From: Patescibacteria group bacterium
GTDB lineage: Bacteria > Patescibacteriota > Saccharimonadia > Saccharimonadales > JAUPVS01
Length of the DNA stretch: 64,000 nt
Assembly (NCBI GenBank): GCA_030916945.1
Contig: JAUPVS010000002.1
Location: forward strand, 10,688-74,687
Direction: 5' to 3'
In this document: in pieces, positions 10,033-56,546 of the stretch
How the letters are laid out: each line of letters opens with the position of its first letter
How positions within the stretch are numbered: position 1 is the stretch's first letter
Notes under the pieces: generated by a model
What the model saw: only the letters and a program-made list of their open reading frames with translations
What the model was told of the DNA's origin: nothing
Database searches by the model: none
Position numbers and translations under genes: made by a program

Positions 10033-11943
10033 CTATACCTGTGGTGGCATCAGAGGTGGTGGGACTGGTGGTGGCGCACCTGGTGTGCTGTCACCGGCCG
10101 TCCGATCAACTGGCTGGGATGGTGGCAATAAACTAGGTGGGATGTCGGTTGAAGGAGACAGATTTGGGTTCACACCATTCATATCGGCCGGGGCGCCAAA
10201 AGGCGTTGTCGTGCTAGGCTGGGTCGGTGTTGGCAACGGTACTCCCGCAGGGGTTGGCGTTGGTGGCAGACCTGGGTTGGGCGCGAATGGTTCTGGACTT
10301 GGCGGCGAAGTTGGTGCCGGTGTTGGCGCAAACGCTGGGTTTGGCGGCGTTGTGGCCGGCGCGGCATAGTTATTGCCCAAATTCAGGTTAACTGGCTGAG
10401 CGCCGAGGGCTTCGATGGGAGCCAGTGGTTGGCTAGGCGCTTCTGAAGCGATGGCCACATCAACTGCTTCTCGGGCATCGTCAATAACTTCTTCTTTGGT
10501 TTCGACGTCCGGCACAGCTGCGTTACCAGCTGCTGGGGCGGCGTGAGGGCTACCAACCGATGATTCAAGATTACTAAGAGTCGGTAATGGGTTGGACTGC
10601 TGGATAGGCGTTCCAGCCATGTTGCTCGGCCTATTTAACAGTGGTGGCAATGGGTTATTATCAACTGCCGGGAGGCTCAACGGATCGGTCGAGGGCTCTT
10701 TTTGCAGATGTTCAGGCTGACTGTTGGCCGTGAACTGACCACCCATCACAGGCGGCTGCAGAGCCATTGTATTAGGATTTGAGCCCAAGTCGGACGGCGC
10801 CAAGCGCGGTGTGCGATCGTTGGCTTTGCTAATTGCCGAGTGTGATATTAGCGGAGACTGCGCCTGGTCTACCGGCTTTGCCCCTTCTTCGAGCGGCTGC
10901 ACCGGTGTTGCCAAAGGCTCCGAATCAAGTGGCTTACCCAACATCCCCGAGGCGTTCACATCGAGTGGCTCAGATTCTTCGGGAGTTTCGGTTTCTTTAG
11001 GGGATTCTTCTGCTGCAACCTCTTCTGAAACGTCTTCAGAAACTTCTTCCTTGTCGTCTTCACTGCCCTGATGTTCTATCTGTAATTCGCCAGTGGCAAC
11101 TTTTTCGGGAGTTGGCTCATCGCTTTCGGTTACGGGGGCTGGTTTTTCGTTAGCAACTTCGAGTTTGCTGGCAATCAGTTGCTGGTTAGCGCCGACACTC
11201 ATAAGCTCGGCTGACAAAGTCATGGTACGAGGGCTGGTCTTGGCATTGCTAAAGCGATCGGTTTCGGCCACGATTCCAGTCATAAAGGCGGTAGCCATCT
11301 GGGCATCGAGTGGGTTGGGCGAAAGACCTTTAGCCAGCTCTACCAACATTTCTGACAAGCTACTGGCCGTTATATCGATCCAGTTAATCGCTCCGAGTTC
11401 GCCCTGGTCTTTGTTATTAACAGAGATGACGGTGGCATCGTGCAGAATCCGGCCATGGGCTGTAATCGCCTGGTCAAGCTCGGTGCGTTCATGCACGCCC
11501 AGCGCCACAACGGCATCGACATTAAAGTCACCCTGACTAAAGTCGAGGTCTTTGTCGCTCAAGCTGGTGCGGTAAGGCGTAATAAAGATCTTAACAACCT
11601 TGTCTTCTACCTTATAGCGCAGCTTATCAGCCTTGGCTTTATCTAAAGCAATAATGAAGTCGCGCAAGCTGTCGGTGTTCTTTTCGATGGTATCGTCGGG
11701 TTTTAAGAACTCGATAGTAGAAGGAATGGTGCCACTAAAAACAGCCGTACCGTGCTTGCCGAGATGGTTCAATAACAGAGTAAAACCGATACAAGCCGCT
11801 AGCTGGTCAACCGATGGGTTGTTACTAACTGTAACCAGTACATTATTTGCCTCTTTAAGGCGTTCAATGATTTGTTGTCGGGCGTTTTGGTCCATAAATG
11901 GTTTTTTATTTTTAGATAACTCTGTTGAAAATCGTATCATCAA
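10033..11943 (-). CDS. NrnA-like DHH-family domain protein with degenerate catalytic motifs and ~370-aa Pro/Thr/Ala-rich C-terminal tail
   Basis: The N-terminal ~260 aa align by eye to B. subtilis NrnA (DITASSLSEMLVEL and GIVAETDRF blocks are conserved). The metal-binding motifs are replaced: DPD by SVD and DHH by VHE. No DHHA1/GGGH domain is present. The rest is low-complexity proline-rich sequence. Confidence 0.7.
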   Translation of the reverse strand: MMIRFSTELSKNKKPFMDQNARQQIIERLKEANNVLVTVSNNPSVDQLAACIGFTLLLNHLGKHGTAVFSGTIPSTIEFLKPDDTIEKNTDSLRDFIIALDKAKADKLRYKVEDKVVKIFITPYRTSLSDKDLDFSQGDFNVDAVVALGVHERTELDQAITAHGRILHDATVISVNNKDQGELGAINWIDITASSLSEMLVELAKGLSPNPLDAQMATAFMTGIVAETDRFSNAKTSPRTMTLSAELMSVGANQQLIASKLEVANEKPAPVTESDEPTPEKVATGELQIEHQGSEDDKEEVSEDVSEEVAAEESPKETETPEESEPLDVNASGMLGKPLDSEPLATPVQPLEEGAKPVDQAQSPLISHSAISKANDRTPRLAPSDLGSNPNTMALQPPVMGGQFTANSQPEHLQKEPSTDPLSLPAVDNNPLPPLLNRPSNMAGTPIQQSNPLPTLSNLESSVGSPHAAPAAGNAAVPDVETKEEVIDDAREAVDVAIASEAPSQPLAPIEALGAQPVNLNLGNNYAAPATTPPNPAFAPTPAPTSPPSPEPFAPNPGLPPTPTPAGVPLPTPTQPSTTTPFGAPADMNGVNPNLSPSTDIPPSLLPPSQPVDRTAGDSTPGAPPPVPPPLMPPQV

Positions 11944-12035: not shown

Positions 12036-12401
12036 ATGCCCATTATTAAGTCAGCTAAAAAGCGCGTTCGCGTTGCCAGTAAAGCAACCGCTCGCAATAC
12101 TAAAACTAAACGTAACTTTCGTACTGCCATTAAGGACTTTCAGGCCGCTTTGACCTCTGGTAAAGACGTCAGCAAAAAGCAGAGCCAGGCCCAAAGTAGC
12201 ATCGATACCGCCGTTAAAAAAGGCGTCATGCACAAGAACAAGGCTGCTCGCAAGAAAAGCCAGCTCGCCAAGGCCGCTAAAGCTTCTGGTGCCAAGCCAG
12301 TCGCCAAGAAGGCAGCCGCCAAAGCCCCTGCTAAAAAGGCCGCTCCCAAAAAACCAGTAGCTAAGAAACCAGCTGCTAAAAAGCCTGCTACAAAGAAATA
12401 A
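12036..12401 (+). CDS. rpsT: 30S ribosomal protein S20 with Lys/Ala-rich histone-H1-like C-terminal extension
   Basis: N-terminus MPIIKSAKKRVRVASKATARNTKTKRNFRTAIK is the classic S20 start. The last ~40 aa are AKKAAAKAPAKKAAPKKPVAKKPAAKKPATKK. Confidence 0.85.
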   Translation: MPIIKSAKKRVRVASKATARNTKTKRNFRTAIKDFQAALTSGKDVSKKQSQAQSSIDTAVKKGVMHKNKAARKKSQLAKAAKASGAKPVAKKAAAKAPAKKAAPKKPVAKKPAAKKPATKK

Positions 12402-13710
12402 GCTCTCCGGCGGCCGGCGATAAGCTTGGCTCCACGCCTAGTAAACGACTACGAGTTTGCGGGTCTTTCCATTCTGCCAGAACGATACGGGCAGCTTCTT
12501 CACGATTACGCGATCGCTTATCAAGATCTTCAGAGCCTTGCAGGCCAGCCTCGACCTCATTGAGTCTAGTCGCCACCAGCTCAAACACATCCGGGCGACC
12601 ATAGAGGCTGATAAGGCGGTTTTCTACCTCAGACTGAGTTTGCAGCCTGTTTTCTTCCCCTTGGGCACTATATGCTCTGGATACGACCTGCAGTGGCAGG
12701 TATTCGTAGTTCAACCATCCTATATCACCCTCCAGTAACTCTTCTTGGAAAGGATGTTGGACGGCTTCGAACAACTGACGGTAGCCGGTGTAGACTCCCC
12801 AGTCACCATGTCGTTGCTCTGGGTCAACGACTTCCCATTGCCCATGGTGAAAAACCTGATGAAAGTGCTCGGCCATGACCTCATCTACCCATGTTGGCCC
12901 AAATCTAAAAAATAGATGATTCAGTTCGTGCCCTGTAGTGTTTTCTATGGCCTCCTGCAGGGTTGTCCTTTCGTCAGTTGGCTCAACAATAAAGGCCGCC
13001 AATGTGGCATGTTCGCTGTTGGTAAGGTTCTTTACGGCTTGCACACCGGCGTATCCGGTTACGTGACCCAAAGCCGTAGCATCCCAAAAATCGGTAATTA
13101 TTACCTTGGCATTATTGGTTTGGCTAATCACATCAGCGGCTGATGGATCAAAGTAGTCTTTGTCTATGGCCAACTGAATGCCCGAATTGAAAAGATATTT
13201 TTCGTAATCGATAGCATCGGTGACGTCCTCGTACTGCTGCAGGGCATCGAACCTACTAGCGTGCCACTGGCAGAAGTTTAGTACTTGTTCTTCGTTTGCA
13301 TCTTCGGCTAACCATTCTAGCCATGTGCCCTCTCTTGCGTTTTGCTCAGGAGCGATGTCTCGAAAGAATTGAGGTAAATGCATGTCTATCACACGGTTCA
13401 TGATGCTTGTAAACTTCGGGGAGAAGTCTTTTATATTCTGCTGCAGCGCTTGGCTTTGGACTCCTCTAGTCCACAATAGTTGGGAGGCCTTGGCGTCCAT
13501 GATCTCACTCTTTTTTGCAAAGTGTGGGTAGTAATCGGCAACATCTCGCCAGTCGTCGGCGCGTAGTAGATTACCAACCCTGGCTTCTTCGGTAAGCACT
13601 AAGTTGCGACCGAACAAGTCGCGCGCCATCCATGGATGATCTTGGTCAGAAATAAATAGCGGCTCAGGGGGTAAATTAAACTGGGGGTGTTGTTCAGCCG
13701 GCCTACTCAT
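12388..13710 (-). CDS. hypothetical protein with HExxH (HELNH) zinc-metallopeptidase-like motif
   Basis: 440-aa soluble protein. TGHELNHLFF and a second His-rich segment (EHFHQVFHHGQ) suggest a zincin-like fold. No signal peptide. Confidence 0.45.
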   Translation of the reverse strand: MSRPAEQHPQFNLPPEPLFISDQDHPWMARDLFGRNLVLTEEARVGNLLRADDWRDVADYYPHFAKKSEIMDAKASQLLWTRGVQSQALQQNIKDFSPKFTSIMNRVIDMHLPQFFRDIAPEQNAREGTWLEWLAEDANEEQVLNFCQWHASRFDALQQYEDVTDAIDYEKYLFNSGIQLAIDKDYFDPSAADVISQTNNAKVIITDFWDATALGHVTGYAGVQAVKNLTNSEHATLAAFIVEPTDERTTLQEAIENTTGHELNHLFFRFGPTWVDEVMAEHFHQVFHHGQWEVVDPEQRHGDWGVYTGYRQLFEAVQHPFQEELLEGDIGWLNYEYLPLQVVSRAYSAQGEENRLQTQSEVENRLISLYGRPDVFELVATRLNEVEAGLQGSEDLDKRSRNREEAARIVLAEWKDPQTRSRLLGVEPSLSPAAGELISL

Positions 13711-52485: not shown

Positions 52486-53163
52486 TTATGCCTTCTGGGC
52501 AAATGTCACGGCTCTAACCTCTGCCGCGCCAGCCTTAATAAGTACCTGGGCGGCTGTTTCAATGGTTGCGCCAGTGGTCAACACATCGTCAACCAATAGG
52601 ATTGACTTGCCCTGTACCCTGTGCGGCCACGGACAGTAATAGGCATTCTGTAACTGCTTCAACCGTTCCTGCCTGTTGGCTCCAACCTGCCGGGTCTTAC
52701 CTAGTCGTCTTAATAGCGGCTGATAGGGGAGGGTTCTGGCGCGAGCGAACTCGCGGGCAATTAGCTGGGCCTGATCATAACCACGCTGGCGCACCCGGGC
52801 AGTGGCCGTGGGCACATGAACAACCACCCCGGCCAAACTAGAAGATAGGCGTCTGTCCATAATAAGGGCGGCGATATGGGCGGCGGCTTGGGTACGTGAG
52901 AACTTAAGGCGGCCGATCAGTTGCACTGCTAGGCCACTATAAGCCGTGGCGACATCTACGGTTGTGAGATTCTTCGAAGCCAAGCATGTCGTGCAAACCA
53001 CGCCTAGCGTTGCATTTCGGCAGACGTAACAGACACCGGACAGGGGAGGGACGCAGTTATACTGGCAGACCTTACACAATAACGAGCCCTCCAAGCCACA
53101 TCCCAAGCAGTCGAACGGGGCAAATAACTGTAAAATTTGATCGACTTTCCACATACTCACCAT
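52486..53163 (-). CDS. comFC: ComF-family protein (ComFC-type phosphoribosyltransferase with N-terminal Cys4 zinc finger)
   Basis: N-terminal CxxC...CxxC pairs and the C-terminal PRTase motif ILLVDDVLTTGATI. Confidence 0.8.
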   Translation of the reverse strand: MVSMWKVDQILQLFAPFDCLGCGLEGSLLCKVCQYNCVPPLSGVCYVCRNATLGVVCTTCLASKNLTTVDVATAYSGLAVQLIGRLKFSRTQAAAHIAALIMDRRLSSSLAGVVVHVPTATARVRQRGYDQAQLIAREFARARTLPYQPLLRRLGKTRQVGANRQERLKQLQNAYYCPWPHRVQGKSILLVDDVLTTGATIETAAQVLIKAGAAEVRAVTFAQKA

Positions 53164-53337
53164 GCTACAAGAGCACTATTAAAGGGTTCTTAACAGGGGC
53201 TAATAAAACTGTTGTGATTATTGTGTTGTAAATATGTGCCCCTAGACGTTGCCTGCTAACTATTGTCTAAGTTATACTGACAGGAAAGACAAAAATCTCG
53301 AAAAATTATTAATGATGTACGTGGAGGGTAACACACG

Positions 53338-53820
53338 ATGGCGCGACGAAACCGCGATGACGATTTATTGATGGAAGATGAGTTGACCGCCGCCTTCCTA
53401 GGTGATGATGACCTACCAACTAGCGACGCTCCGGCCGACGCGCCTGCAGCAGCCCAACCGGCTGCCAACGACGAATGGGACGAAGACGAAGCTGTACCAG
53501 GCCAATTGGCCGTTGATGTTTACGAAACTACCGAGAAGCTAGTTGTTAAAGCCCGCACCGCTGGCGTTAACAAGAATGAGCTCGATGTTAGTATTGCCGA
53601 CAATACACTTAGCATTCGTGGCACGCTATCTGCCGGAAACGAAGAAGAGGTAGAAAACTACTTCGTGCAGGAATGTTACTGGGGCGAGTTCTCACGCAGC
53701 ATTGCCTTACCGGTACCGGTTAAAGAAGACGAAGTCGAAGCCCTCCTTAAAGACGGCGTTTTGACCATTAGCTTCCGTAAGCTCAAGCAAGACACTGTTA
53801 AGAAGATCCAAGTCCTGTAG
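53338..53820 (+). CDS. Hsp20/alpha-crystallin family small heat-shock protein
   Basis: Alpha-crystallin domain (LAVDVYETTEKLVVKARTAGVNKNELDVSIADNTLSIRG...). Acidic N-terminal arm. Confidence 0.85.
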   Translation: MARRNRDDDLLMEDELTAAFLGDDDLPTSDAPADAPAAAQPAANDEWDEDEAVPGQLAVDVYETTEKLVVKARTAGVNKNELDVSIADNTLSIRGTLSAGNEEEVENYFVQECYWGEFSRSIALPVPVKEDEVEALLKDGVLTISFRKLKQDTVKKIQVL

Positions 53821-53840
53821 AAAAACTACTAGGCATTAAA

Positions 53841-53867
53841 AAACCGCCCCGAGAGGCGGTTTTTTTG
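53841..53867. terminator. bidirectional rho-independent terminator between convergent hsp20 and pilin genes
   Basis: aaaaaCCGCCCCgagaGGCGGttttttt. GC stem with A-tract and T-tract on either side, so it can terminate both strands. Confidence 0.6.
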
Positions 53868-53883
53868 TTATCAGGAGCAACCA

Positions 53884-54303
53884 CTAAGTTGTTGCGTTCG
53901 ATACCTTGGAAAGAACGAACTTGACGATGAACTGCGACAGCGCAACCACTACAAGCCCGACTACTGCGAACAGAATTGTGTTCTTGGCAGACTGAACGTT
54001 ACCCGAGTCACCACCAGAGATGATGTATCGGAAACCACCAACGATGATCATAATCACAGCGGCTACACCGACTATGATAGAGAACGTGTTGATCACAAAT
54101 GTGATGGTGTTATTCACCGTACCCTGGGCTTCTTCGGCTGTAACGTCACAGCTACCGTCCGATGAGGCGTTAAGGTTGGCACCAGAACAAAGACCTTGTT
54201 CAATTTCGTCGGCAGCATAGACCGCGGCAGGCACCATAAGTGGAGCTGCAAACAGGCTTACTGAAACAAAAGCGACTATCGCAAGTTTAATTTTTTTGAT
54301 CAT
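53884..54303 (-). CDS. VirB2/TrbC-like T4SS pilin-family protein, paralog 1
   Basis: Signal peptide (cleavage near AVYA), a variable region, then a conserved two-TM module: INTFSIIVGVAAVIMIIVGGFRYIISGGDSGNVQSAKNTILFAVVGLVVVALSQFIV. Same topology and GG...Ax loop as VirB2/TrbC pilins. RBS AAAGGTA. Confidence 0.55.
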   Translation of the reverse strand: MIKKIKLAIVAFVSVSLFAAPLMVPAAVYAADEIEQGLCSGANLNASSDGSCDVTAEEAQGTVNNTITFVINTFSIIVGVAAVIMIIVGGFRYIISGGDSGNVQSAKNTILFAVVGLVVVALSQFIVKFVLSKVSNATT

Positions 54304-54378
54304 GAATTCTTTTTACCTTTCTTTATAACTGTTTTGGTTATATCACATCTCTGTTGTGTTGAGCAAGTCCAAATACCG

Positions 54379-54762
54379 CTAAAGCTTTGGATTTGTCAGC
54401 ACAAAGTTAACAATTAACTGGGCCAGCATAGCTACGACCAAGCCAATCACCGAGTATAAAATAGTGTCCCGAGCGCTGGCAATTTTGGCCGGCTCGCCAC
54501 CGGCGGTAATAAACTTAAAGCCAGCGATCATCAACATCACGACGGCCGCAAATCCAATTAGATAGCTCAGAATGCTTATAGCCGCTTGTAAGGTGCTTTG
54601 GACAGTTGGGCCGTCGGCCGGCGGTTTACAGTCGCTTGTGCCACCAGTTAATCCAATACCGGCACATACCGAGTCTTTAGCAGTTGCGGCCGACACAACA
54701 GCCGGGCTGGCAACCATAACCAAACTCAGTGCTATGAGGGTTAAGGTTAATAATTTCTTCAT
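54379..54762 (-). CDS. VirB2/TrbC-like T4SS pilin-family protein, paralog 2
   Basis: Start moved to MKKLLTLTL (RBS AAAGGAAAG). Signal peptide, then ISILSYLIGFAAVVMLMIAGFKFITAGGEPAKIASARDTILYSVIGLVVAMLAQLIV. Confidence 0.55.
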   Translation of the reverse strand: MKKLLTLTLIALSLVMVASPAVVSAATAKDSVCAGIGLTGGTSDCKPPADGPTVQSTLQAAISILSYLIGFAAVVMLMIAGFKFITAGGEPAKIASARDTILYSVIGLVVAMLAQLIVNFVLTNPKL

Positions 54763-54786
54763 ATGGGCTTTCCTTTTTAAGTTCAT

Positions 54787-55173
54787 TTATACTTGTCTAA
54801 CAACAAATCCGGCTATTACCTGCGCCAGTACTACAATAACAATTCCAATAACCGCAAAAATCAGACTGTTTTTAGCTTTGCTCAAGGCGGCCGGCTCCCC
54901 TTGGGAAGTTATAAAGCTAAAGCCAGCCACCATAATAACAATTACTGACGCAACGCCAACCAAGATACTTAGTAAGTCGATGGCTCGTCCAATAATACCG
55001 CCAGGACCAGTCAGCGGGTCATCGGTCTGGTTAGTAGTACAGACACTTGAGGCATCGGCGCCAGTAGCGTTACAGGCATCTTGCGTCAGATTCTCGGCGT
55101 AAACCGGTGTTAGTGCAGTTAGCACCAAGACTGACATAACGATAGCTAGCACAACTGTAAGATATCTACGCAT
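54787..55173 (-). CDS. VirB2/TrbC-like T4SS pilin-family protein, paralog 3
   Basis: Signal peptide (MRRYLTVVLAIVMSVLVLTALTPVYA), then IDLLSILVGVASVIVIMVAGFSFITSQGEPAALSKAKNSLIFAVIGIVIVVLAQVI. Abuts paralog 2. Confidence 0.55.
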   Translation of the reverse strand: MRRYLTVVLAIVMSVLVLTALTPVYAENLTQDACNATGADASSVCTTNQTDDPLTGPGGIIGRAIDLLSILVGVASVIVIMVAGFSFITSQGEPAALSKAKNSLIFAVIGIVIVVLAQVIAGFVVRQV

Positions 55174-55472
55174 TATTTGGTTATCTCCGTGACCACAAAA
55201 GCGACAATGGCATAAGACAGTAGGGAAATGACCAAACCAATTACCGCGTACATAATTGTGTCTTTGGCCTTAGCGACACGTTGCGGGTCACCTTGCGAAA
55301 TAACGTACTGAAAGCCACCGATCACAATCATTAAAACAGAGATCGCCCCCAGCGCCGCGAACACCACACTCATAATAACTGGGATGGCATCATCGCTAGT
55401 CGTCCCTCCCGGCCCGTTGGGTAAAGGGGAAAGATCGATTTCGGCGGCGATTTGGCGTAGGTGTTGCAACAT
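55173..55472 (-). CDS. VirB2/TrbC-like T4SS pilin-family protein, paralog 4 (short, no obvious signal peptide)
   Basis: 99 aa. IMSVVFAALGAISVLMIVIGGFQYVISQGDPQRVAKAKDTIMYAVIGLVISLLSYAIV. TAATG overlap with paralog 3. Confidence 0.5.
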   Translation of the reverse strand: MLQHLRQIAAEIDLSPLPNGPGGTTSDDAIPVIMSVVFAALGAISVLMIVIGGFQYVISQGDPQRVAKAKDTIMYAVIGLVISLLSYAIVAFVVTEITK

Positions 55473-55484
55473 ACTTTCTCCAGT

Positions 55485-55886
55485 TTACAATCGATTACCA
55501 ATAAATGACACTATCTGGGTAGCCATCATAACAATCACCAAACCAATGATTGCGCCGATAATTGTCTCTTTAGCCTGCTTTGTACGATCGGGTTCGCCTT
55601 GGCTGGTCATATACAGAAAACCACCATAAATTACATAAATAACAGCGGCGATGCCACCGACTCGCAATAGAATATCGATAATACCCAACATGATAGCCCA
55701 GACATCAGATGGGTTTTGAGCAAAGTCAATATTAACCTTGCAGACCGAAACCCCATCCTTGTTGACCGTCTCCATATTGAGATACTTGTACCAAACCGGT
55801 AGACCAAAAAAGGTTTTGGCCTTGTCGGCGGCACAGTCGAGGGCCGGTTGCTCGGCGGCAAAGCGGGTTAATGTGCTTAATAACAT
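55485..55886 (-). CDS. VirB2/TrbC-like T4SS pilin-family protein, paralog 5 (no obvious signal peptide)
   Basis: 133 aa. IMLGIIDILLRVGGIAAVIYVIYGGFLYMTSQGEPDRTKQAKETIIGAIIGLVIVMMATQIV. Confidence 0.5.
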   Translation of the reverse strand: MLLSTLTRFAAEQPALDCAADKAKTFFGLPVWYKYLNMETVNKDGVSVCKVNIDFAQNPSDVWAIMLGIIDILLRVGGIAAVIYVIYGGFLYMTSQGEPDRTKQAKETIIGAIIGLVIVMMATQIVSFIGNRL

Positions 55887-56546
55887 TTAAAGACCTCCTG
55901 GAACAATCCATTGTAAGAAACCGTATAGGAACATATAGGCAACCAGAGCAAAAATCGCATTACGGATTCGGTTCTTGGCCTTGCCAATCCGCTGCGGGTC
56001 GCCACCGGCGGTGGTGTACTGGATTCCAGCGATAATAATAACAATAATCACAATCAGGCCAATGCTACCGGACAAGATATTGATGGCTACGTTGACGTTC
56101 TCGATGATACAGTTGTCGCTACTGGTAACCTCCTTGCCGTTACACTGAGTACCGTTAAAGCTGGGGTCGGCTTGAATATCCTCTTTGTTGCTAAACGGCA
56201 GGTTAGTTTTAACAGGGTTGCCGGCTTTACCGTCGGTTGGCTGCAAAATTCCTCGTTTAGGGTCTGGCGGGCTGTCGCAGCCAACTTTAACGGGTGGGCT
56301 TGGCCCAAAGCCGGTTGCCCAACTGTAATAGCAACCGTCAGCGGCCGGGTCGAGGCTCGGGTATACGGTTTTTAAGACTTCGCAGTCTATCTTGGCAAAG
56401 CCCGGAGAAGACGGGGCATAACTATAACAACCAGGATCATTGGCAGCCAAAGCTGTACCTTGTAGCCCAAATAACATGCCAGCCATAAATAGAACAGCCA
56501 TAATAAACTTGCTGGTATTGGTTTTTAGGTTGGGTAGTTTCTTCAT
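55887..56546 (-). CDS. VirB2/TrbC-like T4SS pilin-family protein, paralog 6 (long form with Cys-rich extracellular region)
   Basis: 219 aa. Signal peptide, a ~110-aa Cys/Pro/Gly-rich region, then INILSGSIGLIVIIVIIIAGIQYTTAGGDPQRIGKAKNRIRNAIFALVAYMFLYGFL. Confidence 0.5.
   Translation of the reverse strand: MKKLPNLKTNTSKFIMAVLFMAGMLFGLQGTALAANDPGCYSYAPSSPGFAKIDCEVLKTVYPSLDPAADGCYYSWATGFGPSPPVKVGCDSPPDPKRGILQPTDGKAGNPVKTNLPFSNKEDIQADPSFNGTQCNGKEVTSSDNCIIENVNVAINILSGSIGLIVIIVIIIAGIQYTTAGGDPQRIGKAKNRIRNAIFALVAYMFLYGFLQWIVPGGL

Follow-up and report, generated by a model that had tools for sequence, protein, structure and literature searches.

Six tandem genes and the hairpin they share

Six small genes, here called P1 to P6, lie side by side on the minus strand at positions 53884-56546 of a 64,000-nucleotide stretch of contig JAUPVS010000002.1 (the window, by which we mean the whole stretch analysed), which belongs to the chromosome of a Patescibacteria/Saccharibacteria metagenome-assembled genome (MAG). 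Genes of a type IV secretion system (T4SS) adjoin them, and we interpret the six as an array of putative VirB2/TrbC-like pilins. A preliminary description of the window had pointed to six consecutive open reading frames (ORFs) here, all of which were recovered at the stated coordinates, on the minus strand. The first and longest, P1 (55887-56546; 219 amino acids [aa]), is a class-1 pilin in the scheme developed below, and consists of a predicted signal peptide, a six-cysteine ectodomain of ~115 aa (the Cys-rich insertion that the preliminary description had noticed in one gene), a disordered linker, a two-helix hairpin and a C-terminal VPGGL tail. P2 (55485-55886; 133 aa; class 2) is without a classical signal peptide and carries a C...FFGLPVWYKYL...C motif and the hairpin. 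P3 (55173-55472; 99 aa) is a minimal, class-3 pilin with neither signal peptide nor cysteine, made up of an acidic N-terminal tail of ~30 aa and two hydrophobic segments only. P4 (54787-55173; 128 aa), P5 (54379-54786; 135 aa) and P6 (53884-54303; 139 aa) are class-4 pilins; P4 and P5 each have a predicted signal peptide, a Cys pair and the hairpin, and P6 is the most conserved member of the array. The true start of P5 is probably Met9 at 54762, because a Shine-Dalgarno-like sequence (AAAGGAAA) lies upstream of Met9 and none precedes Met1, and because homologues are 127 aa long. P1 and P2 are 100% identical to the NCBI entries QG553_169 and QG553_168 (Patescibacteria group bacterium), both annotated as 'hypothetical protein'.

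The array follows a further gene, g186, in a tightly packed operon of seven genes ordered g186-P1-P2-P3-P4-P5-P6. An ATGA overlap joins g186 to the start of P1, P1 and P2 abut (TAA-ATG), 12 nucleotides separate P2 from P3, and P4 starts on the stop codon of P3 within a TAATG overlap, so that the translational coupling proposed earlier is borne out at three junctions. A 75-nucleotide spacer precedes P6, and a terminator hairpin follows it.

All six proteins end in a common module of ~75 aa comprising a first helix, the motif [GA]G[FI]x[YF], a loop of the form x[ST/IA][SA][GQ]G[DE][PS] followed by four residues and [KS]A[KR], and a second helix; the shared C-terminal module claimed in the preliminary description is thus real. 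Pairwise identity among the paralogs is 25-46% over this module and 24-30% over the full length. A hidden Markov model (HMM) of the module, run against every ORF of 45 aa or more in the six frames of the 64-kb window, recovers P1 to P6 and nothing else, hence the resemblance is not due to chance. Each of the six matches the Pfam family PF18895 (T4SS_pilin) above its curated cut-off of 26.6 bits, with scores of 38.2 (P1), 45.1 (P2), 44.5 (P3), 36.6 (P4), 50.3 (P5) and 43.9 bits (P6) and E-values from 5e-9 to 2.6e-13. P2 also exceeds the cut-off of PF04956 (TrbC/VirB2; 33.0 versus 27.9 bits, E 7e-8). A third model, NF045849 of NCBIfam, aligns with all six over nearly its whole length of 80 residues (E 1e-6 to 1e-8), at scores of 27-35 bits that lie under its equivalog cut-off of 40.

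Such matches could in principle reflect hydrophobic composition, the six proteins being generic hairpins of two transmembrane (TM) helices unrelated to T4SS pilins. PF18895 was itself named from annotation rather than experiment, our fold searches returned generic hairpins only, and profile searches of the PDB with class-4 and class-2 alignments matched no solved pilin chain at E-values up to 10, giving merely insignificant hits to the transmembrane parts of MacB and HtrII. Against this, PF18895 is matched at E-values of 1e-9 to 1e-13 while other membrane families reach 9e-4 or weaker, the PF04956 and NF045849 matches bring the number of independent curated profiles to three, the loop motif is conserved, and a VirB6 gene is linked to the array in 20 of 28 related loci. 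We regard the generic hairpin as extremely improbable.

By hydropathy, P1, P4, P5 and P6 have three hydrophobic segments (an N-terminal segment and two TM helices), and P2 and P3 have the two TM helices only. Signal peptides being called here from hydropathy, this matches the earlier count of four members with and two without them. In all six, the two helices that remain after any signal peptide have Kyte-Doolittle (19-mer) peaks of 1.8-2.9; the loops between them are neutral to basic (net charge 0 to +4), and the regions before helix 1 are mostly acidic (net -1 to -4; P5, +1). The preliminary description had called the N-terminal regions unrelated, which is largely so, except that P2, P4, P5 and P6 each have one Cys pair ahead of helix 1. 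In the AlphaFold model of P5 the hairpin forms two long antiparallel helices (residues 54-86 and 91-123) with a predicted local distance difference test (pLDDT) score of 80-86. The model of P1 is poor (mean pLDDT 59); it places helices at 146-179 and 184-214, leaves the linker at 99-151 disordered, and gives the Cys-rich module (pLDDT 63-80) a likeness to a small beta-rich domain. Proteins of the P2 and P3 classes were also seen to share a short N-terminal leader, h-x-x-[FL]-A-A, without a basic n-region or a long hydrophobic core, and in some lineages P2 has a full signal peptide instead.

The topology bears on a published reading of such arrays. A conserved array of four to six small proteins beside VirB4 and VirB6 was reported from Saccharibacteria by McLean et al. 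(2020), who read the array of Nanosynbacter lyticus TM7x, six genes of which four have signal peptides, as a set of secreted effectors resembling pertussis toxin (PMC7427843). The window has the same 4+2 split beside T4SS genes, and in TM7x one half of the array goes up during stable symbiosis (10.1101/2022.03.25.485537), as might be expected on that reading. In the window, however, two strongly hydrophobic helices remain in all six proteins, which makes them integral membrane proteins and not soluble cargo, and the Pfam search gave no pertussis-toxin domain and PF18895 as the top match each time. An effector array is consequently very unlikely. The assignment of P1 to P6 as VirB2/TrbC-like pilins, a prediction from sequence, is supported by the curated profiles, the two-helix topology and the T4SS neighbours.

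Positional classes across related loci

A metagenome scan seeded with a tight P6-centred alignment yielded 80 loci, and arrays were counted in the 29 Saccharimonadia-like loci, the window included, in which the array lies clear of the contig ends. These arrays comprise six genes (17 loci), seven (9), eight (2) or nine (1), and a relative with a single such gene, which the preliminary description had named as contrary to its reading, was not encountered among them. A scan of a genome collection with P2 gave two loci only, the closest in an uncultured Candidatus Saccharibacteria MAG, and in the best 120 matches of a protein search with a class-2 profile no cultured strain was named.

Across the 29 loci, the place of a gene in the array predicts what kind of protein it encodes. 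Proteins at position 1 are 120-335 aa long (median 168) and mostly have a leader (26/29) and at least four cysteines (18/29); a PGG tail occurs in 24 of the 29 and nowhere else. Position 2 (116-174 aa, median 136) is marked by P-x-W-[YWF], found in 25/29 and at no other position, and by two cysteines (25/29), a classical leader being present in 13/29 only; within 18 P2 orthologues, residues C18, P30, W32 and C49 are invariant. Position 3 proteins (median 97 aa) are usually without an N-terminal hydrophobic segment (27/29) and without cysteine (23/29). From position 4 onwards the median length is 139 aa, nearly all proteins have a leader (102/103) and most have two cysteines (74/103). When the 17 six-gene loci are compared, the best match of a protein lies at the same position in another locus for 95% of P1, 100% of P2, 73% of P3, 46% of P4, 49% of P5 and 96% of P6 comparisons. 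The P6 proteins of the compared loci are 44-61% identical to that of the window, and positional best matches across loci of such divergence imply that the duplications predate the separation of these lineages. Judged by these sequence comparisons, the paralogs are at least four old, distinct and positionally fixed classes, with P4 to P6 forming one looser group to which the additional copies of larger arrays belong.

Comparison with the close relative L001 shows how unevenly the array evolves. Hairpins of the window and L001 are 92-97% identical, with nonsynonymous divergence (dN) of 0.012-0.056, and P6 is 98% identical to its orthologue (dN 0.015); the P1 ectodomains are only 48% identical. 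Among neighbouring genes, g186 is 48% and VirB6 70% identical, and VirB4 and Hsp20 are 98% identical. Synonymous divergence (dS) between the two loci is saturated (~1-2, or not computable), which makes the ratio of dN to dS unreliable, and dN and identity alone were used. The fast part of P1 contains the Cys module PGCY..K.DC..YP..DP..CY.W..GFGPS.PV..C (residues about 38-92), which has no Pfam match. It is present once in the window, twice in L003 (5916-6923), P0016 and P0017, and not at all in L004, and so behaves as a cassette.

This pattern raises the question of whether the paralogs might be interchangeable alternative pilins, one or few of them used at a time, for evasion of recognition or for matching host strains, as has been suggested for VirB2 paralogs in Bartonella and Anaplasma. 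The idea has been put forward by Quinonero-Coronel et al. (2025; PMC12102498), and it accords with the low identity among paralogs (24-30% over the full length, 25-46% over the hairpin), with the rise of copy number from six to nine through extra class-4 genes, and with the rapid divergence of the P1 ectodomain, whose Cys module is duplicated or lost among relatives. The array as a whole does not behave in this way. Positional orthologues persist across loci with P6 proteins 44-61% identical, so that the duplications are old; each class has kept its own motifs and its signal peptide or lack of one; a single operon with coupled translation holds all the genes; hairpin dN is very low; and the whole pilin series has been reported as essential in Southlakia epibionticum (PMC10633639). 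Variation under selection, one of three explanations offered in the preliminary description, therefore suits the P1 ectodomain and the varying number of P4-P6 genes only and not the remaining classes, and as an account of the array we consider it unlikely. Because the classes are old, distinct and co-expressed, heteromeric assembly is favoured over a variation cassette, and of the three earlier suggestions the heteropolymeric one, broadened to a multi-component assembly of position-fixed and co-transcribed subunits, appears to fit best.

Operon boundaries and the surrounding T4SS locus

The pilin operon is closed by a bidirectional intrinsic terminator (53838-53865) between P6 and a convergent Hsp20 gene, composed of an A-tract, a 12-bp hairpin and a T-tract. 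Its folding energy is -16.3 kcal/mol (z = -3.8) and none of 200 shuffled sequences folds as well, and it can terminate both the pilin operon and the Hsp20 gene. A consensus terminator scan of 53300-58500 had missed this hairpin, which folding confirmed. At the other end, a divergent intergenic region (57104-57233) separates the pilin operon from the operon for the T4SS machinery and includes a promoter-like site on the plus strand, TAGACA-17-TATAAT (57179-57207), with 11 of 12 consensus matches; the promoter scan found no convincing minus-strand promoter for the pilin operon. In the region 53300-58500 as a whole there were 14 promoter-like sites versus 6.6 expected from shuffles, mostly within coding sequence.

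The first gene of the pilin operon, g186 (56543-57103, minus strand), encodes 186 aa, with a membrane anchor at the N-terminus and a domain of ~125 aa, and evolves fast; its counterparts in L001, L003 and L007, which occupy the corresponding place, show 48%, 34% and 25% identity. Proteins of the VirB8/PrgL type combine a membrane anchor with an NTF2-like fold, and the domain of g186 weakly matches the NTF2-like family PF05223 (21.9 bits versus a cut-off of 22). The gene may encode a candidate VirB8/PrgL-like (NTF2-like) subunit.

The machinery genes diverge from the pilin operon on the plus strand, in the order g343, VirB6-, PrgI/VirB3-, TrsD- and VirB4-like. The lineage-specific g343 (57234-58265) encodes a membrane-anchored protein of 343 aa with no Pfam or NCBIfam match, and was detected in L003 and L007 only. 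It is followed by an extended, polytopic VirB6/TrbL-like membrane protein of 854 aa (58375-60939) with a weak match to PF04610 (TrbL), whose orthologues in L003 and L004 carry PF19590 (TrbL_3) in precomputed annotation, and by a protein of the PrgI family (VirB3-like; 60994-61911; PF12666, 44.1 bits versus a cut-off of 27). A TrsD-like protein of 294 aa (61939-62823; NF041427 TrsD, 27.3 bits) resembles the N-terminal region of VirB4, with sub-threshold matches to the corresponding parts of VirB4 models (NCBIfam scores of 24-27 bits for TrsD and VirB4 together), and its stop codon overlaps by one base the start of a VirB4-like ATPase. The latter (62823-64000) leaves the window after its N-terminal 392 aa; it has P-loop matches to PF19044, PF01935 and PF12846, and its orthologue in L003 carries PF26593 (TraC-like). 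Among the window ORFs scanned, none was recognised as a relaxase, a coupling protein or a VirB5. The same T4SS layout is found in L001, L003 and many metagenome loci.

On the far side of the array lie the Hsp20 gene (53338-53820, plus strand), convergent to P6, and a gene for a ComF-like phosphoribosyltransferase (52486-53163, minus strand). In related loci Hsp20 is directly downstream of the array in 27 of 28, the ComF-like gene comes next in 20 of 28, and VirB6 is divergent upstream in 20 of 28, while in the remaining eight either the sequence upstream is too short or there is no match. The Hsp20/ComF neighbourhood is unusually stable for a secretion locus. What remains of the window is chromosomal housekeeping, with genes for FtsK, RNase J, PNPase, Pol I, sigma-70, DnaG, ArgRS, GroEL, a Mur ligase family protein, TsaD and ValRS, and tRNAs. 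A few other genes in the window resisted clear assignment. A protein of 1101 aa (21507-24812, minus strand) is without a confident family and has a faint met-zincin-like HExxH match near residue 551, and the 420-aa protein that follows it (20242-21504, minus strand) has a weak match to DUF3137. For two further minus-strand ORFs, at 10033-11943 (636 aa) and 12388-13710 (440 aa), Pfam gave nothing at its usual thresholds; the former weakly resembles a DHH N-terminal domain (18.6 bits).

A proposed heteromeric structure and its known counterparts

We propose that the array is a chromosomal VirB2-like pilin array of a Saccharibacterial T4SS, the same feature as in S. epibionticum ML1 and in TM7x, and that its products build a heteromeric structure; we would put the probability of this reading at roughly 0.7. 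In such a scheme the proteins would insert into the cytoplasmic membrane so that the basic GG(D/E)P...AK loop faces inwards and their N-terminal part is exposed outside, P1 and P4 to P6 by way of Sec-cleaved signal peptides, and P2 and P3 by way of short acidic or non-canonical N-terminal tails. The Cys pairs would form extracellular disulfides. A VirB4-powered machine would then extract the hairpins and stack them, in the manner of VirB2/TraA pilins, into a pilus-like or wall-spanning tube. Members of the P4-P6 class, P6 above all, could make up the bulk of the structure, with P2 and P3 as initiators or adaptors present in few copies and P1, with its fast-evolving Cys-rich ectodomain, as a distal subunit in contact with the host. 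To our knowledge, dedicated initiator and tip subunits are established for type IV pili and chaperone-usher pili and not for T4SS pili.

The same subunits may also be pictured without an extended pilus, as T4SS components that line or scaffold a short channel through membrane and wall where epibiont and host touch. Monoderm T4SSs of a related class are described as lacking pili (PMC12102498), no pilus attributable to a T4SS has been reported in these bacteria (PMC12857230, PMC11665869), and for an epibiont sitting on the surface of its host a long filament would seem needless. The matches to PF18895 and PF04956 show a pilin-like type of subunit only, which would suit a channel as well as a pilus. 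We see the short channel as possible, if somewhat doubtful.

Several observations weigh against the heteromeric pilin array as we propose it. The search for solved pilin chains mentioned above was negative, and PF04956 is reached by P5 and P4 only below its cut-off (22.2 and 17.3 bits) and by P1, P3 and P6 not at all. A T4SS pilus has yet to be seen in any Patescibacterium; a filament has been called a possibility, and the role of the T4SS 'completely unknown' (PMC12857230, PMC11665869). The suggested roles of the classes (bulk, adaptor, tip) are read from conservation patterns only, and no clean line divides P4 and P5 from P6 (positional best matches, 46-49%). Sampling seeded with P6 biases the loci compared toward relatives of one lineage, and a second Saccharibacteria MAG (L002, 7769-12328) has an array that is built differently, with three pilin-hairpin proteins that carry large N-terminal domains (497, 315 and 289 aa) followed by three small ones, which indicates that the architecture of the array varies between lineages.

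Much of this picture has been published, and the finding is a correct rediscovery in which the fixed order of four classes and the link to a pilin-like protein of Mycoplasma are new. In the T4SS locus of S. epibionticum, transposon sequencing showed a series of predicted pilins to be essential (Wang et al. 2023; PMC10633639), a review of 2025 counts six pilins in that locus (PMC12857230), and the TM7x array is transcribed (10.1101/2022.03.25.485537). Quinonero-Coronel et al. (2025) searched 3,035 genomes with PF18895 and PF04956; 383 assemblies yielded 441 arrays, of 2-11 pilins each and 25% identical on average, chiefly from Saccharimonadia and Microgenomatia (PMC12102498). The preliminary description had considered an array of six unusual, which holds in relation to canonical T4SSs (PMC12102498, PMC12857230) and does not hold for Saccharibacteria, of which such arrays are a published hallmark. 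Where it has been tested, in a single strain, the Saccharibacterial T4SS proved essential to epibiotic life (PMC10633639, PMC11665869), and no part of it is more unusual than the pilin array. The window adds an environmental instance, so far annotated by NCBI as 'hypothetical protein' only, and leaves the published picture unchanged. As the four classes are old, not interchangeable and fixed in order, the six genes are best treated in experiments as different parts of one structure.

One of the closest counterparts is that of S. epibionticum ML1 (SEML1_0006-0019), an organism of the same class in which the pilins likewise lie inside a monoderm-type locus with VirB3-, VirB4- and VirB6-like genes, six in number and similar in structure though divergent in sequence. 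Orthology gene by gene is suggested by the layout, and essentiality is known for ML1 only. TM7x likewise has its six small genes, four with signal peptides and two without, beside VirB4 and VirB6 homologues; the members of its array were read as secreted effectors, whereas the hairpin topology and Pfam matches in the window favour pilin-like membrane subunits. The VirB2 arrays surveyed across Patescibacteria resemble that of the window in lying near virB4, in the lack of a relaxase and in an identity of ~25%; the accessible text of the survey reports variability, suggests host adaptation and does not mention a fixed order of four classes (PMC12102498).

The canonical VirB2/TrbC/TraA pilins of diderms share with P1 to P6 the two helices and the short basic loop, and are likewise encoded alongside VirB3, VirB4 and VirB6. 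Most of them have a cleaved leader, unlike P2 and P3, which are without a signal peptide, and their gene is single-copy, whereas the window has six genes, extra Cys-containing ectodomains and a monoderm host. Several divergent VirB2 genes also occur in tandem in the host-interaction T4SSs of Bartonella and Anaplasma phagocytophilum; those paralogs are thought to serve antigenic variation, in contrast to the old, positionally conserved and coupled classes of the window (PMC12102498 for the former).

The model that aligns with all six hairpins, NF045849, describes the Mbov_0395/MMCAP2_0565 pilin-like conjugal transfer protein of Mycoplasma conjugative elements. Mycoplasma is a wall-less monoderm with a VirB4 of related kind, and its gene of the Mbov_0395 type is not known to occur in more than one copy. 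The matches imply that a VirB2-like hairpin exists in a monoderm T4SS of a related class. That class has been said to lack VirB2, with capture from diderm systems left open (PMC12102498). We tentatively suggest that a four-class kit whose order is fixed across this class of bacteria would give a VirB2-type structure that is heteromeric and has initiator and tip subunits of its own and, should the homology of the Mycoplasma hairpin be true, that a VirB2-like subunit belonged to monoderm T4SSs from the outset and was not borrowed from diderms.

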